Shown piece after piece: positions 15,618-31,541 of a stretch of 64,000 nucleotides of DNA; position 1 is the stretch's first letter; the number at the start of each line of letters is the position of its first letter. Origin of the DNA: Deltaproteobacteria bacterium (GTDB taxonomy: Bacteria > Bdellovibrionota > JACOXK01); contig JACPKQ010000007.1 of assembly GCA_016186995.1 (NCBI GenBank), positions 52,226 to 116,225 of the forward strand, read 5' to 3'. Below the pieces are notes generated by a model, which was not told the origin of the DNA, did not search any database, and worked only from the letters and a program-made list of their open reading frames with translations. The position numbers and the translations under genes are program-made.

Positions 15618-15710
15618 ATCTTCTTTCCTTTTTTTTAAATATTTTAACACGCACTTAATATTGACGCAATTTTATTTATATGAAAAAGTCTCCAAGAGAA
15701 GGTTATTGTT

Positions 15711-16721
15711 GTGAATATAAAAATTAAAGCAATAGAATATTATTTGCCTGAAAAAACACTCAGTAATTGCGAGCTCGACAAAGAAAACCCTAGCTGGAGA
15801 ATGAAAACAGTTGAAGCTCGAACCGGTATTTTAAAGCGCCACATAGCAACGGAAGATGAAACAGCTTTAGACCTTGCTTTTAAAGCCTGTCAAAAGCTAT
15901 TTGAAAAACATGATGGTCTTCGACATCAGATTGACGGCATTCTCTTTTGCACACAAAGCCCTGATTACGTCATGCCTCAAAATGCATGTATCTTACACAA
16001 ACTTTTAGAATTACCTGAAAATACATTTGCTGTGGATATTAACATGGCATGTTCAGGGTATATCTACACTTTAAGTATTGCACGCGGATTAATTCACACG
16101 GGAATAGCCCACAATGTTCTGCTCATAAATGCTGACACTTATTCCAAATATATTCATGATAAGGATCGAGCCACACGCGTCATTTTTGGAGATGGGGGTG
16201 CTGTTTCTTGGATCACTTCTGCCGAATCTCACGAAGGTATTATCGATATGCAATGTGCTACGTCTGGAGCAAATTATGATAAATTTATGATCAAAGCAGG
16301 CGCTTGTCGTATACCCAAATCAGAAGAGACATCTGTGCCAACAACGGATAGCTCAGGAAATGTTCACACAATGGAAACCATTGAAATGGATGGAGCTGGA
16401 ATATTAAAATTTGTTTCTGAAAAAGTGCCAAAACAAGTAGTATCAATTTTAGAGCGCAATAACTACACAATAGAAGATGTAGATTTATTTATCTTTCACC
16501 AAGCTAGTAAAATGGTCTTAGATTCTTTATCCCGATTATTGAGAATTAAAAAAGAAAAAGTTTTTTCCAATCTTCAAAACATAGGTAATACTGTTTCCGC
16601 ATCTATTCCCATTGCACTCAAAGATGCCATGGAGGAAGGAAAAATTTCAAAAGGGGATACTGTGTTAATTTCGGGCTTTGGAGTCGGCCTTTCATGGGGT
16701 ACTGCACTTATAAAAATATAA
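15711..16721 (+). CDS. 3-oxoacyl-ACP synthase III (FabH-like KAS III) family condensing enzyme
   Basis: The Cys-His-Asn triad context is present: NMACSGY (Cys), FHQASKM (the HQAN motif) and NIGNTVSASIPIAL (the GNTSAAS motif). GTG start. Confidence 0.8.
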   Translation: MNIKIKAIEYYLPEKTLSNCELDKENPSWRMKTVEARTGILKRHIATEDETALDLAFKACQKLFEKHDGLRHQIDGILFCTQSPDYVMPQNACILHKLLELPENTFAVDINMACSGYIYTLSIARGLIHTGIAHNVLLINADTYSKYIHDKDRATRVIFGDGGAVSWITSAESHEGIIDMQCATSGANYDKFMIKAGACRIPKSEETSVPTTDSSGNVHTMETIEMDGAGILKFVSEKVPKQVVSILERNNYTIEDVDLFIFHQASKMVLDSLSRLLRIKKEKVFSNLQNIGNTVSASIPIALKDAMEEGKISKGDTVLISGFGVGLSWGTALIKI

Positions 16722-16736
16722 AAGGAGAATAAGTCT

Positions 16737-17537
16737 ATGTTGACAAGAATTGCTGAAGACAAACAAGTGATGGATCATGTGGAATCGGTCAATGCTTACG
16801 ATGAAGGGGGCAAAAAGGGAAACCTTCTTCCCACGTATTATCTAGCCGCTGATATTATTTGTCAGTTGGCACCACAAGAGGGACACGCTGTGGATATTGC
16901 CTGCGGTAATGGGTTGCTTACTTTGACATTAGCACAATCTTTGCCCAACTTTAAATTTCTGGGATTAGAACTTTCTTCCACCATGCTTGAAAGAGCACAA
17001 GAAAATTCTAAATTATTTAACAAGCACGTTGAATTCACTCAAGCAAGCATGACTGACTTAAGTTCAATTCCTTCACATTCATCGGACTTAACACTGATCA
17101 CTTATGCTCTGCACCACACTGATTCAGAGAAAGATGCGCGAAGCATATTGTCTGAAATAAATCGCATTACAAAGAAAGACGGAGCTATTTTTATTATGGA
17201 TCTGATTCGTCCTCGAAGTCATATGATATATAAATTTATTTCAAAGGCACTTGGAACAAAAAATCCATATTTACAAAAAGACTTTGAAGCTTCTCTTAGA
17301 GCATCTTATAACACCTCAGAATTTCGAAGGCTCCTAGAATCCGCAGGTTTGACGAACCTGACATATCATCGTGATCTTATTTTACACATGGCTTTTAGAC
17401 CGCATCGCCAGGCTCAAAAAAACTCACCTGTTTTTTTCAATCAAGGTGAAAACTTACTTAAAACAAAAATGATTTACAACACATCAAGGCTTATTTTTAA
17501 CTTGAAGAAAAGGCTCCATCCACGATGGGAAGTGTAA
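16737..17537 (+). CDS. Class I SAM-dependent methyltransferase
   Basis: Motif I is AVDIACGNGLLT. Motif post-I is LGLELS. Motif II is IFIMDLI. Confidence 0.75.
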   Translation: MLTRIAEDKQVMDHVESVNAYDEGGKKGNLLPTYYLAADIICQLAPQEGHAVDIACGNGLLTLTLAQSLPNFKFLGLELSSTMLERAQENSKLFNKHVEFTQASMTDLSSIPSHSSDLTLITYALHHTDSEKDARSILSEINRITKKDGAIFIMDLIRPRSHMIYKFISKALGTKNPYLQKDFEASLRASYNTSEFRRLLESAGLTNLTYHRDLILHMAFRPHRQAQKNSPVFFNQGENLLKTKMIYNTSRLIFNLKKRLHPRWEV

Positions 17538-19198
17538 CGCACCCGGTATTGATTAAAAATGTGCTTCGGTTTGTTTCAGAGCAAAAAACGAACGTTTATT
17601 GTGAACTTGATCACAGGAAATTTCAGGGAACTCTTGCAATCCAAAAGGAAAACCTTGAAATGAGTATTCCTGGTATGAAACCAGACTCTTCTTGTATAAA
17701 AACCGGCGATACAATGACCGTTTCCTTTCAGGCGGGCGGTCAGGTTTATTCTTTTGTAACAACAATAGTAAGTATGACGTCACATGAACAATTTTTAACT
17801 TCTTATCCATCTAAAATCTCTAAAATGGGGCGTAGAAAATGCCCCAGATATGCTATTCCAAAGGATATTCATTTTTTTATCTCTTTCAGCGATCCGCAAG
17901 ATACATCCACAAAGATGACGGGAAGAGTAATTGATTTTAATACAACCGGCTTAAGGTTCAAGTTAGATCAGCACAAACTTAAACTTTCACAATATAAGTC
18001 TCCTATAATGTATACGCTTCATTTGTCTCCAAAGAAAATAATTCAAGTTAAGGGAGAGGTGAAGCACGAGATTGTTCATAATGATTCCTATTATTATGGG
18101 CTTTCTTTTTTAAATCTAAAATTAAGTGAGCAACAAGAGCTTTTTCAATACATCCTTGATACATTTTATCCTTCCCTGACTCATCGATGGGAAGTTGAGT
18201 TTGATAAATTCTGGGGACTTCTGGAAGATTCTGGATATCTTGGTGAAAAAGACAGTGTTTTTTTTCAAGGAATGCAGTGCCAAGCTCAAAAAGTATGGGG
18301 GACACTTGCCAAAGATCCATTTAAAATTTCTCAGGATCTGGTCTATGTCAGAAATGGCAAACCACTAGGCACCATTTCTGCAACGCGACTCTATGAAAAA
18401 AGCTGGCTTTTCCACCAATTGGCCGTTCATCCTAAAAATATTGCAGAAGGAACGGTTCATGCTGACCTCTATCTGGGTGCTTTTGGGGATTTTATCCTTA
18501 ACAACCCACACATAGATTTTTTAATGGGATTCTACAATATTCATAATACATGGCATCGAAAATTTTTTGACTATTTCGGTCAAACAGCTTCAGATGCTTC
18601 TAAATTCTATGTTGAGCATTTTCACCTGTTTGAGCCCCTCATACCTGAGAGTCCCTATGTTGACCCCTCTTATCCATGGGAGCTTGCAACAGCCGTTGGT
18701 GAAGAAAAGAAATGGATTCTCAAGCACATTCAAAAATGTGTCCCTATGATTATACAAGAAGCGTGTAATTTAGATGCTACCTCATTTGAAATTCCTAAAA
18801 CCCGGAAAACTTATATTGAAAAGGGTCTTGCACGAGATCGGAAACTTCTGATCTTAAAAAAAGATAGAGAAATCGTTGCTTTTGCACTTTTAGAAAACGC
18901 AACGACAGGCATTAATATATTCAATCTACTTGATCAGGCTTTTTTGTTTTATCTGGAAGAAACGCCACAGATTCAAACACTCCTTGTGAAGGGAGTTATG
19001 AATCACTACCGATCGCTTGGAAAAAAATCTTTTCTCTTACTTGCTCAAAAAGAAAACCTGGAACCCTATAGGACACTGAGGTTACAAGAGATATGTATTC
19101 TCAAGAGAGCTGTTTTTCATAGAGATCTTTTTTATGATTATCGCGACTATCTTTTTCTCATGTTCTCAAAAAGCTTGCACCTTTCTGCTCTTGTTTAA
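17525..19198 (+). CDS. PilZ-domain protein (YcgR-N-like plus PilZ) with an uncharacterised C-terminal domain of about 330 aa
   Basis: The PilZ c-di-GMP-binding motifs are RRKCPR (the RxxxR motif) and DFNTTGLRF (the D/NxSxxG motif). The C-terminal domain has no recognisable motif; it might be an acyltransferase. Confidence 0.5.
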   Translation: MGSVTHPVLIKNVLRFVSEQKTNVYCELDHRKFQGTLAIQKENLEMSIPGMKPDSSCIKTGDTMTVSFQAGGQVYSFVTTIVSMTSHEQFLTSYPSKISKMGRRKCPRYAIPKDIHFFISFSDPQDTSTKMTGRVIDFNTTGLRFKLDQHKLKLSQYKSPIMYTLHLSPKKIIQVKGEVKHEIVHNDSYYYGLSFLNLKLSEQQELFQYILDTFYPSLTHRWEVEFDKFWGLLEDSGYLGEKDSVFFQGMQCQAQKVWGTLAKDPFKISQDLVYVRNGKPLGTISATRLYEKSWLFHQLAVHPKNIAEGTVHADLYLGAFGDFILNNPHIDFLMGFYNIHNTWHRKFFDYFGQTASDASKFYVEHFHLFEPLIPESPYVDPSYPWELATAVGEEKKWILKHIQKCVPMIIQEACNLDATSFEIPKTRKTYIEKGLARDRKLLILKKDREIVAFALLENATTGINIFNLLDQAFLFYLEETPQIQTLLVKGVMNHYRSLGKKSFLLLAQKENLEPYRTLRLQEICILKRAVFHRDLFYDYRDYLFLMFSKSLHLSALV

Positions 19199-20594
19199 GT
19201 GGGAGTGAAATAATGAACGATGTGCCCTCAGATGGCTTGCTGTTTGCGCGTATTGTTCCTGAATGACTTTCTATAATCTTTTTACAAATTGCAAGCCCAA
19301 GACCCGTTCCCGTTCCTCTAGGTTTTGTCGTGAAAAAAGGTTCAAATATTTTTTTCTGAATATCAGGCGCAATTCCCTCTCCATTATCTCTAACCTCAAT
19401 TTCAATATGATGATTCAGTAATCGTGATGATAATTGAATGTGTGGTGTTTCACTATGAGATACTGCATCTTTAGCATTGTTTAATAAGTTTAATAAAACT
19501 TGCTCAAGTTGATTCGGCTCAGCCATAATAGAATGAATATCGGACTGAAGATTTTTGGTAATTCTAATGGATGCTTTTTTTGCCTTTGGTTCAAATAGCA
19601 AAACTGCGTTTTCAATGATTTCTTCGATTTCAGTTTCAACAAAAACAGGTTTTGAATAGGAAAAATTTCTCAAGTGTTCTGTAATCTTACTGATACTGTT
19701 GCACCCCTTATCAATGCCTTCCAAAAATTCTCTCAATTCACCCTTATATAAATTTCTATTTTCCAAGATTTCATGGAGCATTTCAGAATAGCCTTCAATA
19801 ACACCGAGTGGACTTTTGACCTCATGGATAATACCCGAGGTTAACTCCCCAATAGCTCCCATTTTCTCCGATTGAATGAGTTGTATCTGAGTCTCTTCTA
19901 ATTCTTTGATTTTGTTTTTTAAGTCATCGTTAAGTTGACTCACCTCATCATACTTTTCTTCAAGCATGCGATGGTTCTTTCTCAGTTCCTCAATAGCATG
20001 AAGATGCGTTTTGGGACGAATCACAAATTGATACCACAATCTTTGATACCAGGGAATACGAAGGTTCCAGGAAATTATGAAATGACAACTCGGCCCTTTT
20101 TTTACAGGAACTACCGTGGCTGACTTAACCCCCATATGTGCAGATGTTTTCTCAATAACACCTCTGGCAATATCAAAGAACGCCTGAGAGGGCTCATAGT
20201 CTGGTTTAAATGTATACCCAAGAGTCACCTTGTTCGGTGAGTTATTAACAACCTCACACTGAACACATCTAAACATAGAATTTACGTAATAAGGAAACTG
20301 TTTATAGATTGCTCTAGGAGAAGCAAGAAGGTGTATCATAATGCTTATAAAGCCAAAGGCTTTAGTATTTACAATTTCTCTGCCAATTTCTACAAAAACG
20401 TCTGGTTCAGGAAAGTGCTTTCGAATTTTTTCATATATTTTTAAGAGAGTTTCATAATCAATCCAATTATTTTGATCAAGAAAATAATCAATAGAATAGG
20501 GCATGTCTTTTAAAAATTCATTCAAATCGATGTCTTTTTCTTTTAAAAAAACAAATAGAATATTGAGCGCACGACAACTCACTTCTTTTTTCAT
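19158..20594 (-). CDS. Cytoplasmic sensor histidine kinase
   Basis: The H box is IHEVKSPLGVI. The HATPase boxes are in NAKDAV...VRDNGEGI...GTGLGLAI. There is no TM segment. The 3' end converges on and overlaps the PilZ gene by 41 nt. Confidence 0.8.
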   Translation of the reverse strand: MKKEVSCRALNILFVFLKEKDIDLNEFLKDMPYSIDYFLDQNNWIDYETLLKIYEKIRKHFPEPDVFVEIGREIVNTKAFGFISIMIHLLASPRAIYKQFPYYVNSMFRCVQCEVVNNSPNKVTLGYTFKPDYEPSQAFFDIARGVIEKTSAHMGVKSATVVPVKKGPSCHFIISWNLRIPWYQRLWYQFVIRPKTHLHAIEELRKNHRMLEEKYDEVSQLNDDLKNKIKELEETQIQLIQSEKMGAIGELTSGIIHEVKSPLGVIEGYSEMLHEILENRNLYKGELREFLEGIDKGCNSISKITEHLRNFSYSKPVFVETEIEEIIENAVLLFEPKAKKASIRITKNLQSDIHSIMAEPNQLEQVLLNLLNNAKDAVSHSETPHIQLSSRLLNHHIEIEVRDNGEGIAPDIQKKIFEPFFTTKPRGTGTGLGLAICKKIIESHSGTIRANSKPSEGTSFIISLPLKQEQKGASFLRT

Positions 20595-20727: not shown

Positions 20728-21462
20728 ATGCAGACCCAAGTGCACAAGCAGTTGAATCCGACGCTTAGAGCGCCTTTTAAGAGTTATCAACCTACCTCTG
20801 GAGAGGAGTTTTGGGATGTTGTTGTTCGAGAAACAGCTGAAGCAAAGCGTAAATTATATGCAGATCCTTGTTTTAAGTCTCTTTGTGATGGAACTATGCC
20901 ACTCAATCAGTATAAAGAATGGCTTAAGGAGACTTATCATTTTACAAGAAATACCCCTCGATTTTTATCTGCAGCAGGCTCCCAAGTAGAAGATGACAAG
21001 CAATTCGTGAGAACACGCTTTTTTCAACACGCGGTTGAAGAAAATGGTCATCACTTAATGGCCCTCAAAGATCTCAGGAATCTGGGGGTTGATGAGGAAA
21101 GTGTGAAGAAAACCTATCCCTGTGCCGGCACAACGGCCATTGTTTCTATGCATTATTACTTAGCACATTACACAAATCCTATTGGTATTTTTGGGGCTGT
21201 TTTTTGCTTTGAAGGCTTGGCCTTTGACCTTTGTGACCAGTGGGCAAAGAATTTAAAGGCTCACCATGGCCTTTCTAATAATTGCCTGACATTTATCATT
21301 TCACATGGCCATTTTGATATAGAACATATTAAAGAGGCCAAAGAGGTCATTAATCATGAGGTTATAACGGAAACAGACAGGAGAGATATTATTTATACAG
21401 CTAATAAAATGTATGATTATTATCGCCTTACCTTTGAGGAAATTGGCCAACTCAAAGATTAA
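20728..21462 (+). CDS. Heme-oxygenase-like diiron oxidase (CADD / PqqC-like 'iron-containing redox enzyme' family)
   Basis: The HO-like helical fold carries conserved His/Glu ligand positions in FFQHAVEENGHH...CFEGLA...ISHGHFDIEH. RBS AAGGAGA precedes ATG 20728. An upstream in-frame extension to 20677 lacks an RBS. Confidence 0.55.
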   Translation: MQTQVHKQLNPTLRAPFKSYQPTSGEEFWDVVVRETAEAKRKLYADPCFKSLCDGTMPLNQYKEWLKETYHFTRNTPRFLSAAGSQVEDDKQFVRTRFFQHAVEENGHHLMALKDLRNLGVDEESVKKTYPCAGTTAIVSMHYYLAHYTNPIGIFGAVFCFEGLAFDLCDQWAKNLKAHHGLSNNCLTFIISHGHFDIEHIKEAKEVINHEVITETDRRDIIYTANKMYDYYRLTFEEIGQLKD

Positions 21463-21481
21463 GCACATTTTTACTTTAGTT

Positions 21482-21509
21482 CCTGCATACTCTGACCGGA
21501 GTATGCAGG
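21482..21509 (+). promoter_or_regulatory. Perfect 11-bp inverted repeat (CCTGCATACTC-N6-GAGTATGCAGG) enclosing the RBS and ATG of the downstream hybrid kinase gene
   Basis: The arms are 21482-21492 and 21499-21509. The GGAG RBS and the ATG at 21503 lie in the right arm. No U-tract follows on either strand. Confidence 0.45.
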
Positions 21510-23080
21510 ACAAAAAAGTCATTCTCATTATCGATGATAATAAAGATAATATCAGGATTGTTAGACATAGACTTAAGGCTATAGATCACGTCAACATACA
21601 CTCTGTCGAAAGTGGCGTAAACATCCTTTCTATTGTCAAAACATTAAATCCAGATCTCATTATTTTAGACCTTCTGCTTCCAAACATAAGCGGCTTTCAA
21701 ATAGCCAAAATCTTAAAATCGAACTCTTCTACGAAAAAAATACCGATTATTATGATATCAGCAATTTTTGATGAAGCTGATGTTCATGCTAGTTTAAAAT
21801 TGGGTGTTGAGAGATTTTATCCAAAATCAGAAATTTTTAAAAACTTTTCGAAACTAAATCATGTAGCATTTCTAGCCTCCATTAAAAATATATTAAGCCA
21901 TTCTGAGATAGCCTCCGAGGAAAAAATGGTTGGAAAAATTTTCTCTATTGGTAAGAGTTTGCAATCTCAAAATTTAAATCAACGGCTCCGTCAGAAGAAA
22001 TTTTACATACACTCCGAAAATGTTTCATCACATATATTCAAAAATATTAAAGAATTTATTCCTCAAGTTATCATATTTAATGCAAACAAGATTGCAGATT
22101 TTAAATCCTGGATGGCAGAATATAAAAAATCCAAAATTTTAGTACCAGTGATTGTCATTATTGAATCATTCTCAGAAGACGGAAGTACCGATAGTTTAGA
22201 GGTAGAAGCTTGTTTTCACTCTCCTCTTGATTATGATTATTTTGAAAATTATCTCAAGATATTATGTGATGAGGACGTGCTTAAGATATCGCAAAAAATA
22301 TTGCGTCACAACATGATTTCGAAAATACATGAGCTTGAAACTGTATATCAAAATTTAAAAAAATTAGATCAAAGGAAATCAGATTTTATTACCATTGCCA
22401 GCCATGAGCTTCAAACACCACTTACTATTATAAAGTCTGCACTGTCTTTCCTTCAAGAAATGAAACATACTTCTCCACCATTTCAGAAATTATTTGAAGC
22501 CATGGAAAGAAACGTAACCAAAATGGTGAATATTGTAAGAACATATTTGATGATTAATAATATAGAATCTTTTAACATGAAACTATCCAAAAAGGAGTTT
22601 TCTATTTCTGAGCTTACTCACGATGTTATTACAGCTTATGATCCCATCATTGCAGAAAATAATATGGCTATTTTACTTGATATTCCAGATCTCCTTCCCC
22701 TAGCTGAAGTCGATGGAGAAAGATTTAAAGATATCTTAGGGCATCTTTTAGAAAACGCGATTAAATTTTCATCGAAAGGTAAGGAAATAAAGATTTCAGC
22801 TAAGTATGAGAAAGATGATTTACATATCATCGTTGAAGATTTTGGAAAAGGCATATCCAAAGAAGATATAAACACAATTTTTGAAAAGTATGCCCAACTT
22901 GAAGATCCATTATTTCGGCAAGCACAGGGCAGTGGACTTGGGTTATATATTGTAAAAAGATTGGTAGAGCTTCATGGAGGACATATTTTCGTCAAAAGCA
23001 CCCCTCACAAAGGAAGCCGCTTTCATATCATTTTTCCTCAAGCCAAAGTTAAGCAAAAAGAAATTTCACAAGCAGCATAA
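21503..23080 (+). CDS. Hybrid sensor kinase: N-terminal receiver, a second degenerate receiver-like domain, then HisKA and HATPase_c
   Basis: The receiver is VILIIDDNKDN...IILDLLLPNISG...IIMISA. The H box is IASHELQTPLT. The ATP-binding region is in NAIKFS...VEDFGKGI...GSGLGLYIV. Confidence 0.8.
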   Translation: MQDKKVILIIDDNKDNIRIVRHRLKAIDHVNIHSVESGVNILSIVKTLNPDLIILDLLLPNISGFQIAKILKSNSSTKKIPIIMISAIFDEADVHASLKLGVERFYPKSEIFKNFSKLNHVAFLASIKNILSHSEIASEEKMVGKIFSIGKSLQSQNLNQRLRQKKFYIHSENVSSHIFKNIKEFIPQVIIFNANKIADFKSWMAEYKKSKILVPVIVIIESFSEDGSTDSLEVEACFHSPLDYDYFENYLKILCDEDVLKISQKILRHNMISKIHELETVYQNLKKLDQRKSDFITIASHELQTPLTIIKSALSFLQEMKHTSPPFQKLFEAMERNVTKMVNIVRTYLMINNIESFNMKLSKKEFSISELTHDVITAYDPIIAENNMAILLDIPDLLPLAEVDGERFKDILGHLLENAIKFSSKGKEIKISAKYEKDDLHIIVEDFGKGISKEDINTIFEKYAQLEDPLFRQAQGSGLGLYIVKRLVELHGGHIFVKSTPHKGSRFHIIFPQAKVKQKEISQAA

Positions 23081-23090
23081 CCGGATTTTC

Positions 23091-24197
23091 TTAAAAAAAC
23101 ATTGATAATTGTGTTCGAGATCTATAATCATTCTGATGAGATGCTCCATTGTTCCACAATCGACTCACCTCAAATTTCCATACAAGATGAGGAGCAGCCT
23201 GAAAATAATAACTAATACCCAAGGTGGCTTCTTCAGGGTCATAGGTTGCAGTTCCCAAAGCAGCATCTTTGTTAACTTTGGCATATCGGGCTGCCACTTC
23301 GAGATACCTTGGGATGAAAAAATAACCGCACTGTATCATATAGCCAAAATCAGTTTTACGTTTATTTTTGTTATGAACACCATTTGCCAATCCTAAAAAA
23401 GAAAATCCCAAATATCGAAACCCTACGTCTGAGGTCAAGTGATAGAGTGTATTCCCATTTACGCTATTATTTCGACTATTCAACCCTGCCACTCCGATAT
23501 TCAACTGAGGTTTTTGTGAGTGCATAAAATCAGGAACAATTGCATAATGCTTTCCCAGAAGAGAAAAATCAAGGCGCCCGCCCACAAGAAACGACGTATT
23601 GGCATTGGATTGGTGCCGACCTTCACCATTCATGACATGTGCATTATAAAAAATGAGGTCATTAAAAATCCACCCCTGGAGATTAATACCAAGCTCTCTC
23701 TCAAAACCTAGATTTGTGCTGATAATGGACCTGTCAACAAGCTGTAGAAACCATGTACGCTGCATATCTTCATGATCAAAGAAGAGAAAAAATTGTCCAA
23801 TTTTAAGATTAAAATATTTTTCAGGCTTCCAGTTGATCCAAGCATCTCTGAGATCAAAAGTTGCTCTGTCAATTCCTGCAACGAGCCCACCAGAAGTCGC
23901 TGCCATGGTGTATGAGATATAATAATCTAACTTCGGATAAAGAACATTACCTTCGTAATAGGTTTCACTATTAAGGGTAAATGTATTAACATTTGCAGCA
24001 CCTCCTTCGGTGTGACGATATTCGTACCTGGGTTGAAGAAGCCATTTAAGTTGGAAAGAAAACAACCCATCTGCTCTTTTAATGTAAAAATGCTCGTCAT
24101 AACCAAATTCAAGTGCTTTACCAGCTTCTTGAGGCGACTTCGCCTGTGCACTATGCCACATTAATATAATTATTAAAAAAAAGACGACCTTCTTCAT
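23091..24197 (-). CDS. Outer-membrane beta-barrel porin, phosphate-selective porin O/P (OprO/OprP)-like
   Basis: Signal peptide MKKVVFFLIIILMWHSAQA. Amphipathic beta strands alternate throughout. The C-terminal residue is Phe (...QLSMFF). Confidence 0.55.
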   Translation of the reverse strand: MKKVVFFLIIILMWHSAQAKSPQEAGKALEFGYDEHFYIKRADGLFSFQLKWLLQPRYEYRHTEGGAANVNTFTLNSETYYEGNVLYPKLDYYISYTMAATSGGLVAGIDRATFDLRDAWINWKPEKYFNLKIGQFFLFFDHEDMQRTWFLQLVDRSIISTNLGFERELGINLQGWIFNDLIFYNAHVMNGEGRHQSNANTSFLVGGRLDFSLLGKHYAIVPDFMHSQKPQLNIGVAGLNSRNNSVNGNTLYHLTSDVGFRYLGFSFLGLANGVHNKNKRKTDFGYMIQCGYFFIPRYLEVAARYAKVNKDAALGTATYDPEEATLGISYYFQAAPHLVWKFEVSRLWNNGASHQNDYRSRTQLSMFF

Positions 24198-24259
24198 CCT
24201 TTAGAAGATTAAATTGCAGTTGAAATGACGTCAATGTTTTTAACCAAAAAGAAAAAAAA

Positions 24260-27200
24260 TTAAGCTGCTTTTTTAAGCTGTTCTTCTTTAATGATACGTT
24301 TTCGGGGAATTCTAAAGGTGAATGTAGAACCTTTTCCATAAACACTTTTGACACAGATATTTCCTCCATGCAATGCAACAATCCTCTTGCAAAGAAAAAG
24401 TCCTAATCCAGACCCTTTTTCAGACTTTTCTACAGGCATTTCTGGAGTTTGGAACCTGTCAAAAATATGAGATATTTTTTCTTGCGAAATCCCTTGTCCT
24501 GTATCTGTAACAGAAACCTCAACAAACTCTTCTCCATTTTCTTTGATAGCTCTAGCTTTGAGAGTGATGGTACCACCCAATGAAGTAAATTTTAAAGCAT
24601 TGATTAAGAGATTTTCAATAACTTCTCGAATACGATCTGGATCACACGTCATGTTTTCAACAAGATCCTCTATTTTAAGATTTATGTGAATACCTCGACT
24701 CTGGGCAATTATTTTAGTATCTTCAAAAACATTCCTGATAAGCTCTTTCAGAAAAACATTTTTATATTGGAGAGAAAATTTTTCAGAATCCAGCTGAGAG
24801 ATGTTAAGAAATTGCTCTGTTAGTCTCGTCATTCTTTGTGTTTGTCGTGATATAATATCTAAAAACTTCCCATGATGTCTTGCCGGCATGGTGGAGAAAG
24901 ATTCAATACAATGTTGAATAATCATGAGTGGATTTTTAAGGTTATGGGAACAAAGTCCAAAGAATACATCTTTAAGGTTAGTAAGTGTTTTGAGTTTTTC
25001 GTAAGCCTGTTTAAGCTCTTCCATTTTCTCTTGAATAACTTCATGTGTCTTTGTAAGTTCTTGAGTTCTTAAATTTACCTTTTCTTCCAAAGATCGACGG
25101 AGTTGATCTAATTCATTGAAAGCCAGAGAGTTTTGAATAGCAATAGCTACTTGTGTCGCAAATACATTAAGTATTTCTAAATCATCTTTTGTAAAAAGGT
25201 TTGTAATAATTCTATTATCAATATAAATGATTCCCAATGTTTCTTTTTCAACTTTTAAAGGCACGCACAGAACAGATCTTAGCCCGTATTTGGTAACAGA
25301 TTTACTTGTCTTAAATTGAGGATCTGTTTGTGCATCGATGACAACAATGCCTTTGGCTTCCTTATAGACCTTTTGGAGTATTTTTTGACTTAAAGAGAAT
25401 TCATCCCCTGAGACTTGTGAAGTATCCACATGTCTTGAAATACGAATTTGAAGTTTTCCATCATTATCTTTTAACATGATAAAACCCCTCTCCCCTCCAA
25501 AGAGTTCAATAAGCGATTCCATCACGCTTGAAAGTAAAGTGGGCAGGTGACGAATGGAACTTAAATAATTACTGACTTTGATAATGGTTTCTAATCGACG
25601 ATTCCGCTTAACTTTTTCCAGCTGCATATCTTTTCTCTGAATGAGTTGTTGATACTTTGAGCAGAGAAGATTGAGATGATACTGATCATCACACTCCTCA
25701 AAAATATCTTTGGCAAGGTAAAGATAATGTATGGCGTTAGATTCAGCTTGTGCAAGAAGAAGTTCAGCATAGGAAAAATAGGTTTGTCCTAATAGATTCT
25801 TTGCCCCCAGCTTGTGTAGTGATTCAATGCTTTTTTTATAAACTCGCTTTGCTTGTGCATGTTTTCCAAAGGCTGTACAGATATCCCCATAAACGCGTAA
25901 AGCCCAACCACCATGGTTTGGATACCGCTGAACTTTTAAAATCTGTTTTCCCATTTTCCAGACTTTCTTTTTAAGTTCTTTATCTTTTTTTTCTTTCCAT
26001 TTTTCAAGATAGGCTTCCGCTAAAGTAAGTGGGGCACCTTGAACATAGCCGATGCGTATTTTGAATTTTTTGATCAGTCCTGTTGCCTTTTCTCCATATT
26101 CAATAGCCTTCTCAAAATTATGAAACAGCAAATACACCGCTGCCGCTGTGTCATAAAGTATTATTTGCCCAATGACATCCTTAATCTCATCAATCATTTT
26201 CAGAGTTTGATGGATACACTTAAATGCCTTTTCTTTATTTCCTCTTAAAGCTTCAAGAAGACCTATCCATGGTAAGATTTTTGTCCTAAAGGAAATATCC
26301 TGGACTTCGGTAGCTATATTGAACGCTATTTTGAAATTTTCTAAAGCTTTTCGTAAATCTCCTTTGATCCACCAACACAACGCTTTAAAACCGATTGCAT
26401 TAGAAAGCTCCCACGCATCACCAATTTTCTCACACCCCTCAATGGCTTTCTCTGTACACTCAATGGCTTTATCCGGATATCCATTATGATAATAGAAAAT
26501 ACCCATACAAGAATGAGTTTGGGCAACACCAAAGACATCGGCATTTTTTATATGAATAGCCAGGGCTTTTCTAGCATAATGAAGAGCTCTTTTCTTAAAA
26601 GGGGTTACTGCCAAATACACACTGTAAATTGATGAAGCTTGAGCTACTTCTTTTTCTTGTCCAACATCATCGGCAACATTTAAATAGCGCTGACAAGAAA
26701 GAAAGCCCTTTATGGGAGTGACAAACCAGTAAGTTAAACTAAGGGCCCGATGGATCCTATTTTGTTCTTGAAAGATTTTTGCCTGTTTTGAATGCTTTTT
26801 TCTTCCAAAGAAATAACGAGGGAATCGTCTATGAAAAAAGCGCATCATGAAAGTTTTTAAAAATGCCAAGACAAGCCCCGGGGTAGAAGAAGGCATTCTT
26901 GCGCCAAGAAATTGCAGGGCTTTTTCAGCATTTTCTATAGATTTTTCATAAGCCCCTTTTCGGAAAAAAAGATCTCCGCGTTTTCGATACAATCGGCACT
27001 TATCTAAAACTGACACTTTTTTTAGAAGAAGATCAGAGTAAATCTTTTCTGCGTCGCTATAATTTCCAATAAGAAGATTGATATCTGCTTTTTCTTCTAA
27101 AACTTCATCTTTAAGAACAAACTCATCTGACCGCATGAATGTTAATGCTCGATTGAAAAAAACAAGGGCTTCTTGTGTTGCATAAGAATGCGTAGCAACT

Positions 27201-29407
27201 TTGCCAGCACGGACCGAGTAATGAACAATTTTTTCAGGAATTTTAGCATGAAAAAAATGGTGAGCTAGTTTGTAAATGGCAAGGGGTCGATCTTTGTCTG
27301 CACTTTTTTCGATGGCAGTGCCCACAAGCTTGTGAATATGTTTCTTTTGTTCGTCTGGAACTTCTTGATAAATAGCTTCCTGAATACGGTCGTGAAGAAA
27401 ATTATAAGTTCCCATATGAAATAGCGATTCTTCTATGAGTTGTGCTTTTTTGGCTTCTTCTAAAGAGTGGTGCACCTCCAGCGGATTGGGATAAACATGC
27501 ATGAGGAGGTCTTGTGTCCACTCCTCTCCGATTGCAGAAGCAATTCTGAGAATTTTCTTAGTGACAGGAGTCACTCGTTTTAATCGTTCGATAAAGAAAC
27601 TAAGAATCTCTTCCGGAAACGGAGTCTTAAGAAGTTGTATCTTATTGAGCTGCCATTTATTTTCCTTGAGATAGAGAATTTCTTTCTCAAATAGCGTCCT
27701 GAATATCTGGGTAATATACAAAGGATTTCCTTCACTTCGAGAGTAGATATGTTTTCCAAGCTCCTCTACCCAAGAGGTTTGGGTCATTAAAATCTCATGA
27801 CAAAGCTCAACAATATCATTTTCTTTCAAAGGAGAGAGCTTTATTTCCATTGTTTTTTCAAACTTTTTAAACTCTTGTGAAAATGATTCTAACCATTCTG
27901 GCGCTTCTGAGGGACGGTAAGTGATCATAAGTTGAATCGGGGTGTGATCAACAGAAGATACTGTTTTCCGAAGCATCTGAAGTGTTTCATGGTCTACGCC
28001 GTGAAGATCATCGAGAAACAGAATGAGAGGATGGACAGAAGCTATAGCTTTCCACAAGGAATTAACACAGTTAAAAAGACGTTCTCTCGCTCTTTCTGGA
28101 GAAAGAGGGGAAATGGGAACAGTTGTTTCATTACATATCAGTTTGAGTTCAGGAACAAATTCCAAAACAACTTCCAACAAATCTTCGAGCTCATCTTCTA
28201 TTGCTTTTTTAATCTGATCTCGGGTTTTTTTAGAAAAGTTTGCATAAAGTTGAACATACTCTCGTATTGCTTGCTGTATCGGTGCATAAGGAAAACGTGT
28301 TAATAAAACATGTCCTTTCCCAGAAATAATAATACATTGGGAAAGCGTAGCATAAGAACGAAGTTCATTTAAAATTCGTGTTTTACCAATGCCAGCCTCT
28401 CCAAGGAGAAACGTGACACTTCCTTTGTTTTGCTTGAGTTGATTCACTTGTGAACGTAGCGTATTTATAACATTCTTCCTACCCATAAGGGGTAGCTCAT
28501 GCATTAATTTTCCTGTTCGATCCACTTTTCCAAGAGGAAAGTTTTCCATACTTCTTCCTTCCTTCAACTTCTGAAAAACAATCTTTAAATCATGAATGAG
28601 ACCTTCTCCAGTTTGATAGCGTTCTGAAGGGTCTTTAGAAAGGAGTTTAAAAACTATTTTTTCGAGTATTTCAGGAACTTGCTTATTTTTTTGTTGAGTC
28701 AGTGAGGGTGGTTGTTTGGTTAAATGATCATGGATAAGCACACCTGCATCTTGAGACTGAAAAGGAGGGGCACCGCTGAGAAATTCATACAAAATAACTC
28801 CAAGCGAATAAAGATCTGAACGAACATCACTGATGTGCCGGAAAAGTCCTGTCTGCTCTGGAGGGATATAGGCAAGAGAACCAACGAGTGCCTCTTTTTC
28901 AAAATAATCATCAATGGTGAGAAGTCTGGCCAAGCCAAAGTCTAAAATTTTTATATTTCCCTTTGAATCAAAAATAATGTTTTCAGGTTTAAGATCGCGA
29001 TGAATAATAAGATTCTGATGGAGATAATTAATAATTTCTATGAGATCAATGGTCCATTTGATGGATTCTTCTATACTTATCTTATGTCTACTTAAGATTT
29101 CCCGGAGTGTGAGCCCCTCAATATATTCTGTAACAAAATAAAGGCAATCTTGAACCTCTCCAAGATCTAATATTTTGACGACACCGGGATGAGAGAGTTT
29201 AAGAAGAATGTGCATTTCTTCTTTCAACCGAAAGACATTTTTCTCCCCCTGATGCTTAAGATCAAGATATTTTAAAATGACCTTGTTTTCAGTTTTAAGA
29301 TCTGTGGCCAAGTATACAAAACTCCCCCCCGACTCTTGAAGAAGCTTTTCTAAAGAATATCGATTATCAATAATATGATTTTTCTTTAAAGCCTGCACCT
29401 TCGCCAT
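24260..29407 (-). CDS. Giant multidomain signalling protein (1715 aa): Ser/Thr protein kinase, AAA+/NACHT-like ATPase, TPR repeats, GAF, HisKA and HATPase_c (HstK-like dual kinase)
   Basis: The Ser/Thr kinase subdomains are VILKYL, HRDLKPENIIF, DFGLAR and PPE. The P-loop is FLLGEAGIGKTR and Walker B is LILFLDDLH. A TPR-like helical array occupies roughly residues 700-1150. GAF is FGGERGFIMLKD. The H box is CSHNLKNPL. The ATP lid is TDTGQGIS...GSGLGLFLC. Confidence 0.85.
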   Translation of the reverse strand: MAKVQALKKNHIIDNRYSLEKLLQESGGSFVYLATDLKTENKVILKYLDLKHQGEKNVFRLKEEMHILLKLSHPGVVKILDLGEVQDCLYFVTEYIEGLTLREILSRHKISIEESIKWTIDLIEIINYLHQNLIIHRDLKPENIIFDSKGNIKILDFGLARLLTIDDYFEKEALVGSLAYIPPEQTGLFRHISDVRSDLYSLGVILYEFLSGAPPFQSQDAGVLIHDHLTKQPPSLTQQKNKQVPEILEKIVFKLLSKDPSERYQTGEGLIHDLKIVFQKLKEGRSMENFPLGKVDRTGKLMHELPLMGRKNVINTLRSQVNQLKQNKGSVTFLLGEAGIGKTRILNELRSYATLSQCIIISGKGHVLLTRFPYAPIQQAIREYVQLYANFSKKTRDQIKKAIEDELEDLLEVVLEFVPELKLICNETTVPISPLSPERARERLFNCVNSLWKAIASVHPLILFLDDLHGVDHETLQMLRKTVSSVDHTPIQLMITYRPSEAPEWLESFSQEFKKFEKTMEIKLSPLKENDIVELCHEILMTQTSWVEELGKHIYSRSEGNPLYITQIFRTLFEKEILYLKENKWQLNKIQLLKTPFPEEILSFFIERLKRVTPVTKKILRIASAIGEEWTQDLLMHVYPNPLEVHHSLEEAKKAQLIEESLFHMGTYNFLHDRIQEAIYQEVPDEQKKHIHKLVGTAIEKSADKDRPLAIYKLAHHFFHAKIPEKIVHYSVRAGKVATHSYATQEALVFFNRALTFMRSDEFVLKDEVLEEKADINLLIGNYSDAEKIYSDLLLKKVSVLDKCRLYRKRGDLFFRKGAYEKSIENAEKALQFLGARMPSSTPGLVLAFLKTFMMRFFHRRFPRYFFGRKKHSKQAKIFQEQNRIHRALSLTYWFVTPIKGFLSCQRYLNVADDVGQEKEVAQASSIYSVYLAVTPFKKRALHYARKALAIHIKNADVFGVAQTHSCMGIFYYHNGYPDKAIECTEKAIEGCEKIGDAWELSNAIGFKALCWWIKGDLRKALENFKIAFNIATEVQDISFRTKILPWIGLLEALRGNKEKAFKCIHQTLKMIDEIKDVIGQIILYDTAAAVYLLFHNFEKAIEYGEKATGLIKKFKIRIGYVQGAPLTLAEAYLEKWKEKKDKELKKKVWKMGKQILKVQRYPNHGGWALRVYGDICTAFGKHAQAKRVYKKSIESLHKLGAKNLLGQTYFSYAELLLAQAESNAIHYLYLAKDIFEECDDQYHLNLLCSKYQQLIQRKDMQLEKVKRNRRLETIIKVSNYLSSIRHLPTLLSSVMESLIELFGGERGFIMLKDNDGKLQIRISRHVDTSQVSGDEFSLSQKILQKVYKEAKGIVVIDAQTDPQFKTSKSVTKYGLRSVLCVPLKVEKETLGIIYIDNRIITNLFTKDDLEILNVFATQVAIAIQNSLAFNELDQLRRSLEEKVNLRTQELTKTHEVIQEKMEELKQAYEKLKTLTNLKDVFFGLCSHNLKNPLMIIQHCIESFSTMPARHHGKFLDIISRQTQRMTRLTEQFLNISQLDSEKFSLQYKNVFLKELIRNVFEDTKIIAQSRGIHINLKIEDLVENMTCDPDRIREVIENLLINALKFTSLGGTITLKARAIKENGEEFVEVSVTDTGQGISQEKISHIFDRFQTPEMPVEKSEKGSGLGLFLCKRIVALHGGNICVKSVYGKGSTFTFRIPRKRIIKEEQLKKAA

Positions 29408-29548
29408 TTAATTCTTTCCTTAGCTAAATGAATAAATGATAAGAAATATGAGGATATTCCACTCTTGCTACTATTTTATCATATAAAAACCAGTCGTGCT
29501 AAAATAACTTAAGAGTTTGATTTTATTACTATAAATTTATCATAGGAA

Positions 29549-30235
29549 CTACTCTTTTTGGAATGAGACAAAAATATTGTCATTCAAGAGGATGTTAAAC
29601 GAATCTAAACGGTTGATAAATACTTGTGTTTCTTTATCTTTCGAAATCGATTTTAGATAAGTAATTATTTTTTTTACGCAGCATAGTAGCACATAGCGAT
29701 ACATAGAAGGTTTGATTTTTATGGAATGAACTTTATTAAGGGAGAGCCCATATTTTTTTGCAAAAGAAATGAGAAATGAGAGGTTGATAGGAGACATATG
29801 CACATGCTCACCCTCAGAAGGCATTTTTACGAAGTGTGGAAATCCTCTGTATGTACCCATTGTAAAAAAACGCATTCTACTTTTGATATTGAGAGGATTA
29901 GGTGTAGAAACTAACAAAACTCCCTTTTTTCTTAATATCCTATGAAATTCTCGCAATACATGATGCTCATTTTCTATATGCTCAAGGCCCTCTAGACATG
30001 CGATATAGTCAAACGAATTATCATCATAGGGAAGAGATTTATTTAAATCTACACTTTTGAAATTTCGAGAAAAACACGGAGTTGCTGGATCCATATCAGC
30101 AGCATAATAGTGCCAAGCATCATCCTTTAATTCATTATAAAGCCAGCCATTACCACATGGAATATCCAGTATTTTCCCAGGTTGAGCATTGCTTAGCAAA
30201 AAGGAAATGATGCTTTGTTTCAGATTGGCTTGCAT
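29549..30235 (-). CDS. Class I SAM-dependent methyltransferase
   Basis: Motif I is KILDIPCGNGWL. Motif II is YIACLEGLEH. Motif III is GVLLVST. Confidence 0.7.
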   Translation of the reverse strand: MQANLKQSIISFLLSNAQPGKILDIPCGNGWLYNELKDDAWHYYAADMDPATPCFSRNFKSVDLNKSLPYDDNSFDYIACLEGLEHIENEHHVLREFHRILRKKGVLLVSTPNPLNIKSRMRFFTMGTYRGFPHFVKMPSEGEHVHMSPINLSFLISFAKKYGLSLNKVHSIKIKPSMYRYVLLCCVKKIITYLKSISKDKETQVFINRLDSFNILLNDNIFVSFQKE

Positions 30236-30335
30236 GTCAAGGTATACTGGTAATTTATTGGAATTACACCGTCAAGATGCCATCACTCAATATTTTTTTG
30301 TACCTTCCGATATGACTATAAAAGGAGATAACTCT

Positions 30336-31541
30336 ATGCGACGAATCCACACAGTAAAGATCATAATGATAGTTTTCGCTGTTCTCACGAGTATAAATCT
30401 GCCAGAACTTACAGCTCAAGATAACAGAAAAGTTGATGAACTTATCAAACAATTAAATAGCCCGGATCCAAAGGTAAGAGAAACAGCAGCATGGGACCTT
30501 GCCTTTACGCAACCTCTTCCAGAAAAATCCGCGTATCCTCTTATTCAAATTTTTAAGAACGACAATAATCCAAAAGTAAGAATTGCTGCGGCTTCTGCCC
30601 TTGCATATTTAAAGAGTACTGCTCAAGAAACAATTCCTCTTTTTATGAAAACTCTCAAAGAAGAGACTCACGACGAAGTGAGGGCAAGTGCAGCTCAGGC
30701 TCTTGGCTATTTAGGTCCGGTTGCTAAAGACGCCATTCCTTTGTTGATCATAACTCTAAACGATAAAAATAAACAAGTAAGAAAGAATGCAGCTTATGCT
30801 CTTGGGAATATGGGCGCATTAGCTCAAGAAGCAATTCCTCAGCTCATCGAGGTCCTTAGGGATGATGATGCCTTTGTGAGATTCAATGCTGCAGAAGCGC
30901 TCGCGCGTATGAGTAGGGATGTTAAAACGATCATTCCTCTTCTTGTTAAGAAACTTGAGCAGGGTGATCGACGTTATACATTGGGTATTATAAAAGTTAT
31001 TGATAATTCGGATAAGCAGCTTGGTAAGCCAGCCGTCCCTGAGCTGCTTAAATTGTTAAAGGATAGTGATCAAAATGTCAGAAGAGAAGCTGCCGGAGCA
31101 ATCGTCAGAACAGGCACGACCCCTCAAGAAGCCCTTCCTCCACTGATTGAAGCACTTCAACATCAGGATGGGGGTGAGAGATCTGGGGCGCTGTCTTCTC
31201 TAGCCTTCTTTGAAGGTAAGAAGAACTCAGAAGCAATCACTCCTCATCTCATAAGCGCTCTAAAAGATAAAGACTGGCGTGTCATTCTAACCGCTGGAAT
31301 CACACTGTCTTGGCGTGGTAAGAAAGATCCTAAAGTTGTGATGCCTTATCTTATCGAGGCGTTAGCGAAAAGCGAGTCTGCTTATGTCAGAAAAGGCGTG
31401 GCAGAGGCGCTTGGAACAATGGGGGCACAAGCTAAAGATGCCGTACCTGCCCTTAAAAAAGCGGAAAAAGATCAAGATAAGAATGTCAGAGAGTCTGCAA
31501 CGAGAGCTATTTCTTCTATTAATTCAAAACTGGGTAAATAA
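30336..31541 (+). CDS. Secreted HEAT-repeat (PBS-lyase-type) protein
   Basis: Signal peptide MRRIHTVKIIMIVFAVLTSINLPELTAQ. There are at least nine repeats of the DxxVRxxAAxALGxLG type: VRETAAWDLA, VRIAAASALAYL, VRASAAQALGYLG, VRKNAAYALGNMG and VRFNAAEALARM. RBS AAAGGAGA precedes ATG 30336. Confidence 0.7.
   Translation: MRRIHTVKIIMIVFAVLTSINLPELTAQDNRKVDELIKQLNSPDPKVRETAAWDLAFTQPLPEKSAYPLIQIFKNDNNPKVRIAAASALAYLKSTAQETIPLFMKTLKEETHDEVRASAAQALGYLGPVAKDAIPLLIITLNDKNKQVRKNAAYALGNMGALAQEAIPQLIEVLRDDDAFVRFNAAEALARMSRDVKTIIPLLVKKLEQGDRRYTLGIIKVIDNSDKQLGKPAVPELLKLLKDSDQNVRREAAGAIVRTGTTPQEALPPLIEALQHQDGGERSGALSSLAFFEGKKNSEAITPHLISALKDKDWRVILTAGITLSWRGKKDPKVVMPYLIEALAKSESAYVRKGVAEALGTMGAQAKDAVPALKKAEKDQDKNVRESATRAISSINSKLGK

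Follow-up and report, generated by a model that had tools for sequence, protein, structure and literature searches.

The joining of a Hanks-type Ser/Thr kinase and a histidine kinase in one polypeptide is a known arrangement. The described class is that of the cyanobacterial dual protein kinases (STK family III), which include HstK (Alr2258), Pkn40 (Alr0709) and Pkn41 (Alr0710) of Anabaena PCC 7120, and HstK itself probably carries an AAA_16 module. Dual protein kinases have been defined by the presence of at least one GAF domain between both kinase modules (PMC2176072), and the class is also described in PMC1262709. The STAND ATPases have been described by a switch model, and Ser/Thr kinases, PknK for one, are among the relatives of MalT (PMC4381067, PMC6468293).

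The gene described here lies in a 64,000-nucleotide stretch of DNA, analysed as a whole and referred to as the window, and a protein identical to its product is already in NCBI (MBI2608323.1, "protein kinase", Deltaproteobacteria MAG). From the N- to the C-terminus, Pfam finds a Hanks Ser/Thr kinase, an AAA_16 STAND ATPase, TPR, GAF, HisKA and HATPase_c (Table 1), which bears out the initial annotation in its description of a Ser/Thr kinase, a STAND-type ATPase, TPR, GAF and a histidine kinase in one polypeptide. The domain hallmarks of a dual protein kinase are present, namely an N-terminal Hanks kinase, a GAF domain between the kinases and C-terminal HisKA and HATPase_c domains. The reading frame is uninterrupted, with no internal stops on translation, and an AAGGA ribosome-binding site is found 11 nt 5' of the ATG; the number of promoter-like sites in the region was not above that in shuffled sequence by consensus scan. 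The fusion protein is predicted to be soluble with no membrane segments, its highest 19-residue hydropathy (1.45) being under the typical membrane-helix level. The GC content of the gene is the same as that of the remainder of the window.

Table 1. Features of the kinase-fusion gene and its flanks, with positions counted from the first letter of the window.
Feature	Residues	Position	Strand	Basis or remark
Promoter-like site TTAGCA, 18 nt, TG-TAAAAT		29473..29502	minus	in 141-nt gap upstream of kinase-fusion gene; consensus scan, weak match
Kinase-fusion gene		24260..29407	minus	1715 aa, ATG start; ORF list and translation
Hanks-type Ser/Thr kinase domain, PknB/Stk1-like	10-285	28553..29380	minus	Pfam Pkinase 3.6e-49
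Degenerate glycine-rich loop QESGGSFV	24-31	29315..29338	minus	alignment with 44 homologues and PknB
STAND nucleotide-binding oligomerisation domain, winged helix and arm	290-800	27008..28540	minus	
Walker A GEAGIGKT	336-343	28379-28402	minus	
Walker B ILFLDD	462-467	28007-28024	minus	
TPR-like helical repeat sensor region	801-1255	25643..27007	minus	Pfam TPR_12 6.3e-20, TPR_2 4e-10, weak TPR_MalT
GAF domain	1288-1424	25136..25546	minus	Pfam GAF 1.3e-18, GAF_2 5.7e-14, GAF_3 1.2e-10
Charged linker, GAF to DHp	1427-1485	24953..25129	minus	read from sequence
HisKA (DHp) domain	1486-1542	24782..24952	minus	Pfam HisKA 6.7e-7
H-box SHNLKNPL		24926-24949	minus	phospho-acceptor His1488, H+1 Asn1489, H+4 Asn1492
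HATPase_c ATP-binding domain	1589-1703	24299..24643	minus	Pfam HATPase_c 1.1e-27
Kinase-porin gap, 62 nt		24198..24259	minus	
Porin gene, Porin_O_P superfamily		23091..24197	minus	368 aa, N-terminal signal peptide; downstream of kinase gene; Pfam 1.3e-9

At the N-terminal end, the Pkinase profile aligned with residues 28-272, and a search of PDB sequences with the kinase domain returned PknB and Stk1-type kinases at 1.6e-48 to 4e-41. The catalytic residues are largely in place: the lysine of VILK (K46), the helix-C glutamates (E63/E64), HRDLKPEN at 136-143 (with the HRD aspartate at D138, and N143) and the DFG motif at 156-158 (D156), with PPE (182-184) at the position of APE. The glycine-rich loop is the exception. 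Its sequence, QESGGSFV, compares with GEGGMSxV as the family consensus, GFGGMSEV in PknB and QQSSGSFV in the orthologue described below, and relative to the GxGxxG/S pattern Gln and Ser stand for the first and second glycines, two of the three being gone. From its sequence, this degenerate loop would make the level of Ser/Thr kinase activity uncertain. Since the activation loop is acidic across the family and is without the phospho-acceptor threonines of the PknB type, proximity or conformation is a better fit as the means of control than phosphorylation of that loop.

The central ATPase had been described as AAA+/NACHT-like and as STAND-like, and of these terms NACHT-like does not hold. AAA_16 was matched at residues 307-489 (1e-19), the P-loop domain is followed by a helical domain, a winged helix and an arm (the NOD fold of the MalT clade), and GNP and LHD motifs occupy the places of the GxP and MHD-like motifs. 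Three residues, G339, G341 and K342, do not vary across 46 sequences, and D467 hardly varies. There was neither a NACHT family match nor a NACHT protein as the closest fold; the fold search of the STAND-TPR core pointed to MalT, and a PDB sequence search with the same core found generic TPR matches only (LGN/Pins). The ATPase is a MalT-clade STAND protein and not NACHT-like. In the sensor region that follows, the TPR_12 and TPR_2 matches span residues about 940-1116, it was the TPRs of LGN/Pins that were matched in the PDB, and the homologues are collinear throughout.

The GAF domain is the segment best conserved with the orthologue (67% identity), and the charged linker that joins it to the DHp domain is probably a signalling helix, judging from its sequence. 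The HATPase_c domain retains all of its boxes: N (NLLINA 1599), G1 (DTGQG 1635), F (FDRF) and G2 (GSGLG 1665). In the HisKA domain the acidic residue at H+1, which serves as general base in autophosphorylation, is replaced by Asn1489, while the Thr/Asn at H+4 that marks phosphatase competence is present as Asn1492. Glu or Asp is found at H+1 in 31/33 chassis homologues (see below), in 113 of the 119 nearest histidine-kinase modules and in the four other histidine kinases of the window; among the homologues and modules compared, Asn at this position is confined to the present protein, its orthologue and one other protein. The acidic H+1 residue is necessary for kinase activity and dispensable for phosphatase activity, for which Thr/Asn at H+4 is required (PMC3510030). 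Substitution of H+1 abolished the autokinase of CrdS (A, D, Q, G), HK853, HK1190 and HK4262 (PMC3510030), as did replacement of the acidic residue in Agp1 (PMC8292422). Since the combination of H+1 Asn and H+4 Asn is kinase-deficient and phosphatase-competent in characterised HisKA kinases, the C-terminal module is most likely a weak autokinase, or mainly a regulated phosphatase. The orthologue carries both motif deviations too, and therefore the histidine-kinase end may, by analogy with these enzymes, be mainly a phosphatase. Other residues could make up for a natural Asn at H+1, and the intact CA boxes may allow residual autokinase activity, although such boxes agree equally well with an ATP-stimulated phosphatase.

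The orthologue (P0002) shares 60% identity over 99% of the length and was found in three independent assemblies; each of nine segments is 48-67% identical with 0-2 gaps, and the two proteins are collinear. It also has HLD for HRD, and Asn in place of the G1-box Asp that binds ATP. Non-orthologous homologues are only about 24-30% identical, and a scan of species-representative genomes returned generic kinase or histidine-kinase domain matches only (Acidobacteriota, Chitinophagales), with no close relative. The family in the wider sense is very large. The STAND-TPR core alone matched 4,792 cluster representatives at E<=1e-30, the matches beginning at residue 280-300 in nearly all of the top homologues and leaving kinase-sized room at the N-terminus, and essentially no full-length homologue lacks AAA_16. 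Among the 120 best matches the outputs were 22 HisKA kinases, 21 HisKA_3 kinases, 18 GGDEF, 14 AraC, 10 SpoIIE, 6 sigma-54 activators, 3 GerE and 1 cyclase. On these alignments, the protein belongs to a very large modular chassis of kinase, STAND, TPR, GAF and a variable C-terminal output, and, on domain content, the version of this chassis bearing HisKA and HATPase_c is the class already known as "dual protein kinase" (HstK-type). The initial annotation had considered such fusions rare and had taken the STAND ATPase and GAF for additions to an HstK-like protein. Neither view can be maintained, given the 22 HisKA outputs and the size of the STAND-TPR family on the one hand and, on the other, the GAF in the class definition and the near-universal AAA_16 module. 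The architecture is already catalogued and not rare, and what is unusual is the pair of non-canonical catalytic motifs.

We consider it probable that the protein is best explained as a soluble, cytoplasmic member of this multi-domain chassis, with a STAND-switch mechanism and a phosphatase-biased C-terminus. In the resting state, the ADP-bound STAND core would be held shut by the arm and the TPR sensor. Binding of a cytoplasmic ligand to the TPR and/or GAF region would open the core, ADP would be exchanged for ATP and the protein would multimerise, bringing the N-terminal kinase domains together and switching them on, and also fixing the register in which the GAF, helix and DHp output lies. 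The C-terminal module would then act on a response regulator encoded elsewhere and not adjacent to the gene. The steps of nucleotide exchange and multimerisation are inferred from MalT and PH0952 (PMC4381067, PMC6468293) and, for multimerisation, from Apaf-1, and the mechanism as a whole is modelled on the STAND and HisKA literature. A stronger proposal, which we put forward only tentatively, is that the "dual kinase" of this lineage is not dual, the HisKA module being a STAND/GAF-gated, kinase-off, phosphatase-on enzyme that leaves the Ser/Thr kinase as the sole source of forward phosphorylation. If so, one polypeptide would oppose a two-component pathway while driving a Ser/Thr pathway.

A fully bifunctional dual kinase, with both ends competent and feeding phosphoserine/threonine and His-Asp pathways simultaneously, would be the natural reading if all catalytic motifs of both kinase types were intact, as originally described. 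This description stands for K46, D138, N143, D156, Walker A/B, His1488 and the N, G1, F and G2 boxes, and, the Walker motifs apart, it is on these residues that the bifunctional reading depends. Every domain is moreover conserved with the orthologue, at about 50-67%, suggesting that both ends are under selection. The description fails at the glycine-rich loop, which is without two of its three glycines, and at H+1, where the residue is acidic in the great majority of nearest relatives and where substitution of the acidic residue abolished autokinase activity in the enzymes cited above. With the further HLD and G1-box substitutions in the orthologue also against it, we regard full competence at both ends as rather unlikely, and favour the phosphatase-biased chassis member. 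It is extremely improbable that the protein is an artefact of assembly or sequencing in which two or three genes have been fused. Unusual ORF length is all that speaks for such a join, and the check that had been called for found no in-frame stops, a collinear orthologue in three independent assemblies and hundreds of homologues that cover every domain junction as a single matched stretch; a chimera was rejected on these grounds. Hardly more probable is a role as a STAND-type (Avs-like) anti-phage or conflict system, or as a kinase-based defence protein. A STAND ATPase with an enzymatic effector would suit such a role, and the PADLOC models PD-T4-6, mad6 and MkoA match the protein with strong scores. 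These matches all fall within residues about 5-330, for the most part on the generic kinase domain (to about 290), and the reading was rejected since the scores cover that domain only; the surrounding genes are ordinary chromosomal ones, the GC content does not set the gene apart and the outputs of the chassis family are classical signalling modules.

The neighbourhood offers a further alternative, a functional kinase-porin operon in which phosphate or another anion is sensed and the porin is controlled by, or together with, the kinase. As originally noted, the gene of an OprO/P-like porin is directly downstream on the same strand with no terminator: its product matches Porin_O_P, no terminator-like site was found in the 62-nt gap by consensus scan, and the gap holds only a 4-bp stem ahead of a U8 tract that is not more stable than shuffled sequence (z 0.76). 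Co-transcription of kinase and porin is therefore possible. A functional link is not borne out, since no porin lies beside the closest orthologue, which has a WG-repeat protein on its upstream side and a cyclophilin on its downstream side. Distant homologues of the same architecture also have different neighbours, the kinase gene contains, within its 3' end, a promoter-like site for the porin, and the Porin_O_P match, at 38.3 bits against a curated cut-off of 20.9, is weak and partial (profile positions 40-160 of 370). We therefore consider the operon improbable and the porin probably an incidental neighbour of the chassis protein; the neighbours of the kinase gene are a methyltransferase, a HEAT-repeat protein, malic enzyme and the porin. 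The nearby REC-HisKA-HATPase gene at 21413-23080 was tried as a conserved partner and gave no sign of being one, its identity to the REC-kinase directly following one homologue (P0004) being only 23% and generic. As to the density of signalling genes in the window, the three receivers, one sigma-54 enhancer-binding protein and one PilZ protein reported previously were found, and five HisKA+HATPase_c proteins in place of the six histidine kinases counted.

Little depends on this single gene. Its architecture has been in catalogues since 2001-2007, and thousands of genomes are now seen to contain it. A full-text literature search for AAA_16, Pkinase and GAF combined found no papers, and one on STAND with kinase and on Pkn40/41 found nothing mechanistic. 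In the searched literature there was no ligand, structure or demonstrated oligomerisation for any chassis member, and the gene is a reminder that a very large chassis is biochemically almost unstudied. The lineage is a natural test case in that both enzymatic ends are substituted at activity-controlling positions, and a dedicated phosphatase, if confirmed, would mean that single-residue changes can retune the modular outputs of STAND signalling proteins.

The sibling proteins of the same chassis, with GGDEF, SpoIIE, sigma-54 activator, AraC, GerE or HisKA_3 outputs, are collinear with the protein described here over the first 1250-1430 residues at 25-30% identity and share the same invariant STAND motifs, and the C-terminal output module alone differs. 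MalT and PH0952 have DNA-binding effectors, whereas the protein described here has an enzymatic module at each end. PknK is not known to have GAF and histidine-kinase modules. From the cyanobacterial dual protein kinases the present protein differs in its host, a low-GC "Deltaproteobacteria" MAG, and in having Asn at H+1 together with a degenerate glycine-rich loop. At the histidine-kinase end it resembles DrBphP of Deinococcus radiodurans in combining HisKA, a non-acidic H+1 residue and an intact CA domain with a sensor upstream (PMC8292422). DrBphP has no kinase activity and a regulated phosphatase activity (PMC8292422). Its H+1 residue is His and its H+4 residue Glu, where Asn occupies both positions here, and the sensor and architecture of the two proteins are unrelated.

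The large kinase, whose domains the initial annotation had read correctly and in the order that Pfam returns, is a real feature. It is encoded by one open reading frame running from 29407 to 24260 with an ATG start, a ribosome-binding site (AAGGA) 11 nt 5' of the start, and an upstream gap of 141 nt containing a weak promoter-like site. Translation of 24260-29407 gave no internal stops, and the GC content of the gene is like that of the surrounding window. Since no segment of the protein attains membrane-helix-level hydropathy, the large kinase is cytoplasmic. A sequencing or assembly error joining separate genes had been put forward as what could overturn this reading, and it is ruled out by a copy in NCBI, an orthologue and junction-spanning homologues. 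NCBI lists the identical protein, from a contig of 175 kb, as MBI2608323.1 ("MAG: protein kinase [Deltaproteobacteria bacterium]"). The orthologue P0002 (L001:8001-13112; 1703 aa, 60% identity, 99% coverage) is collinear and present in three independent assemblies, namely two GenBank MAGs and one Logan run, and in more distant homologues the domain junctions are spanned by a single continuous match. Identity to P0002 was even along the protein (kinase 62%, NOD 60%, winged helix/arm 63%, TPR 58%, GAF 67%, linker helix 48%, DHp 54%, CA 61%) with 0-2 gapped positions per segment, and therefore every part is under selection.

Domains of the large kinase and features of the window
Feature	Position	Strand	Remarks
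NUMOD1 + I-TevI DNA-binding domain protein	3447-4256	plus
Receiver	8424-8834
HisKA+HATPase_c protein	8936-10429
PilZ-domain protein	17525-19198	plus	557 aa
HisKA+HATPase_c protein	19158-20594
HisKA+HATPase_c protein	21413-23080	plus	555 aa, N-terminal receiver
Porin gene	23091-24197	minus	368 aa, signal peptide, partial Porin_O_P match (1.3e-9)
Palindrome	24226-24233		TGACGTCA
Large kinase	24260-29407	minus	1715 aa, HisKA+HATPase_c
Pkinase	residues 28-272		Pfam 3.6e-49
AAA_16	residues 307-489		Pfam 1e-19
NB-ARC (weak)	residues 511-577		Pfam 2.2e-4
TPR_12, TPR_2, weak TPR_MalT	residues about 940-1116		Pfam 6.3e-20 (TPR_12)
GAF	residues 1288-1424		Pfam 1.3e-18
HisKA	residues 1486-1542		Pfam 6.7e-7
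HATPase_c	residues 1589-1703		Pfam 1.1e-27
SAM-dependent methyltransferase gene	29549-30235	minus	upstream of large kinase
HEAT-repeat gene	30189-31541	plus	divergent, upstream of large kinase, HEAT_2 2.8e-73
FeoB	53763-55859
MarR-type winged helix + C-terminal FeoA domain	55856-56536	minus	226 aa
HisKA+HATPase_c protein	58707-60692		PAS
NtrC-type sigma-54 activator	60840-62222		receiver

The description of the ATPase as NACHT-like does not hold. In comparisons of the module, E. coli MalT scored 22.0 (8bob_D, 361 residues aligned), followed by the plant NLR NRC2 (17.9), Apaf-1 (15.5), the TPR-sensor STAND PH0952 (14.6) and the NACHT proteins NLRP3 (13.2) and NOD2 (11.7), and the Pfam results for the large kinase included no match to the NACHT family. 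The alignment showed that the GR motif at residue 310, Walker A (G339/G341/K342), Walker B (D467), the GxP motif (G560-N-P562) and F670-x-H672-D are kept across the family, the last of which we take, from what is known of STAND proteins, to correspond to the ADP-sensing MHD/LHD motif. On this signature and the MalT-like comparison, we place the ATPase in the MalT clade, as a STAND core with an arm and a TPR sensor.

The architecture is very common. A whole-protein search, in which 8,000 candidates were scored, gave at least 5,936 proteins with E<=1e-10, and nearly all of the best 120 have the first 1250-1430 residues in common at 24-30% identity, comprising Pkinase, AAA_16, TPR and usually GAF, with a C-terminus that varies. 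Counted from precomputed Pfam lists, the outputs of these 120 were HisKA+HATPase_c (22, some with extra PAS, REC or Hpt), HisKA_3+HATPase_c (21), GGDEF (18), AraC HTH (14), SpoIIE phosphatase (10), sigma-54 activator with HTH_8 (6), GerE (3) and nucleotide cyclase (1); the remainder end past the TPR region or are truncated proteins. With the STAND-TPR core (residues 290-1270) as the query against 1.84 billion cluster representatives, 4,792 relatives passed E<=1e-30 and 47,457 passed E<=1e-10, so that the fusion can no longer be called rare. For almost all of the 150 best relatives the match starts at target residue 280-300, so that an N-terminal domain as large as a kinase could precede it. 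Cultured Marinoscillum (Bacteroidota) contribute one cluster of this architecture, which RefSeq names "ATP-binding sensor histidine kinase" or "AAA family ATPase". Close sampling is sparse only for the lineage of the large kinase, with one relative above 50% identity in the cluster-representative search.

The catalytic motifs of both kinase types had been considered intact, which is true of the core residues and boxes (Lys46 in VILK, the helix-C Glu, HRDLKPEN, DFG and PPE at one end; His1488 and the N, G1, F and G2 boxes at the other) but not of the glycine-rich loop or the residue following the phospho-acceptor histidine (H+1). The loop reads QESGGSFV, with the first and second glycines replaced, compared with GEGGMSxV in the family consensus, GFGGMSEV in PknB and QQSSGSFV in P0002. 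Going by glycine-triad mutants of PKA, replacements of this kind lower the catalytic efficiency, though they do not necessarily abolish it. Across the kinase-STAND family (homologues P0003-P0045 and the large kinase) the activation loop (28850-28940, residues 156-185 in the large kinase) is acidic and Glu-rich, with no threonine where PknB has T171/T173, which suggests that activation is independent of loop phosphorylation. The P+1 loop has GS in the large-kinase lineage versus the usual GT.

The H-box is S-H-N-L-K-N-P-L, with Asn1489 at H+1 and Asn1492 at H+4. Among 33 H-boxes from homologues with this chassis, 31 have Glu or Asp at H+1, the only exceptions being the large kinase and P0002. 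The four other kinases of the window all have Glu there, and of the 119 closest histidine-kinase modules from a separate database search 113 have an acidic residue, the other six having A (three), K, Q and N (one each). The one further protein with Asn at H+1 is P0298, a metagenomic 383-aa REC-HisKA-HATPase protein (H-box IIHNLKNPL), and Ala is found in the short GAF-linked kinases P0284, P0297 and P0302. Autokinase activity depends on the acidic residue and phosphatase activity does not, as found with CrdS E372A/D/Q/G, HK853 E261A, HK1190, HK4262 and NtrB E140A/Q, while Thr or Asn at H+4 is required for phosphatase activity (PMC3510030). Judged by these two residues, the large kinase would thus be a natural match to the engineered "kinase-minus, phosphatase-plus" genotype. 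P0002 shares both the degenerate glycine-rich loop and Asn at H+1, and further has HLD for HRD in the catalytic loop and SNTGKG rather than DTGQG in the G1 box, so that the adenine-binding Asp is lost to Asn. The deviations may bear on the activity of both kinase ends. Being paired, lineage-conserved and at activity-determining positions, they are the only point of some interest here, and they make the "dual kinase" label appear doubtful for this lineage.

The large kinase combines its domain order and MalT-like fold with conserved nucleotide-switch motifs and non-canonical catalytic residues, and we propose the following mechanism. At rest the STAND core would be ADP-bound, with the arm and the TPR sensor acting as a clamp in the manner of MalT and PH0952 (PMC4381067, PMC6468293). 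Some cytoplasmic ligand at the TPR and/or GAF domain would release the clamp, allowing ADP to be swapped for ATP and the protein then to multimerise. Multimerisation could switch on the N-terminal kinase by proximity and also set the DHp conformation via GAF and the charged helix 1427-1485. Because of Asn1489, the net effect on a partner response regulator would probably be dephosphorylation or only weak phosphorylation.

No co-oriented receiver gene adjoins the large kinase, and receiver-containing genes directly adjoin two of three distant homologues examined, both of the same architecture. A REC-HisKA-HATPase gene (L007:10178-11437) lies adjacent to and 3' of P0004 on the same strand, and kinase and stand-alone receiver genes (L008:2907-4959) lie adjacent to and 5' of P0082, also on the same strand. 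The neighbouring REC gene of one distant homologue is 23% identical to the REC-kinase of the window (21413-23080), which is generic similarity only. Of the receiver domains in the window, that of this REC-kinase lies closest to the large kinase; its gene is convergent with the porin gene, their stop codons being 10 nt apart. The porin gene is, as first described, the next same-strand gene downstream; the 62-nt gap contains no terminator-like site or stable hairpin, which makes read-through plausible. However, P0002 is flanked by genes for a WG-repeat protein and a cyclophilin, and more distant homologues of the same architecture have other neighbours again, and therefore the porin link is not conserved and probably incidental. 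The gap also holds the perfect 8-bp palindrome TGACGTCA, about 30 nt 5' of the porin start codon, which could be a regulator binding site or due to chance. Upstream, the 5' ends of the methyltransferase and HEAT-repeat genes share 47 nt in their listed coordinates, and the TTG start of the latter was probably called too far upstream. A role of the large kinase in defence is unlikely because its PADLOC matches are confined to the generic kinase domain.

The three receivers, one sigma-54 enhancer-binding protein and one PilZ protein counted in the window were all recovered, with five rather than six HisKA+HATPase_c proteins. The remaining genes are ordinary chromosomal content. The same-strand run at 13683-19198 (plus) encodes a B12-binding radical SAM enzyme, a KAS III-like 3-oxoacyl-ACP synthase, a methyltransferase and the PilZ-domain protein, and is possibly a small cluster for a lipid or a secondary metabolite. 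The MarR-FeoA gene lies directly upstream of FeoB. The domains of the 3447-4256 product are typical of homing endonucleases, and Pfam detected no nuclease domain in it; a window-wide count gave a second protein with both domains at a looser threshold, which is not the one at 4195-4980, where Pfam had no match at E<=1e-6.

The large kinase is a further member of a populated and already named class, and is neither a rare nor an augmented fusion. "Dual protein kinases" have been in the literature since 2001-2007 (PMC2176072, PMC1262709). Their defining features are a Ser/Thr kinase at the N-terminus, a His kinase at the C-terminus and one or more GAF domains (PMC2176072), just as found here. The GAF domain and STAND ATPase had been regarded as additions; since GAF belongs to the class definition and AAA_16 to the chassis, neither is an extra. 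Filamentous nitrogen-fixing cyanobacteria have 38 such proteins, those of Anabaena including HstK/Alr2258 and Pkn40/41 (PMC2176072), with 12 in Nostoc PCC 7120 and 11 in N. punctiforme, and the class has also been noted in Leptospira, Ralstonia, Rhodopseudomonas and Pseudomonas putida (PMC1262709). In its STAND core, arm and TPR sensor the large kinase resembles E. coli MalT, whose clade includes Ser/Thr kinases such as PknK (PMC4381067, PMC6468293). In its non-acidic H+1 residue it resembles the phytochrome DrBphP, which is without kinase activity and is a regulated phosphatase (PMC8292422).
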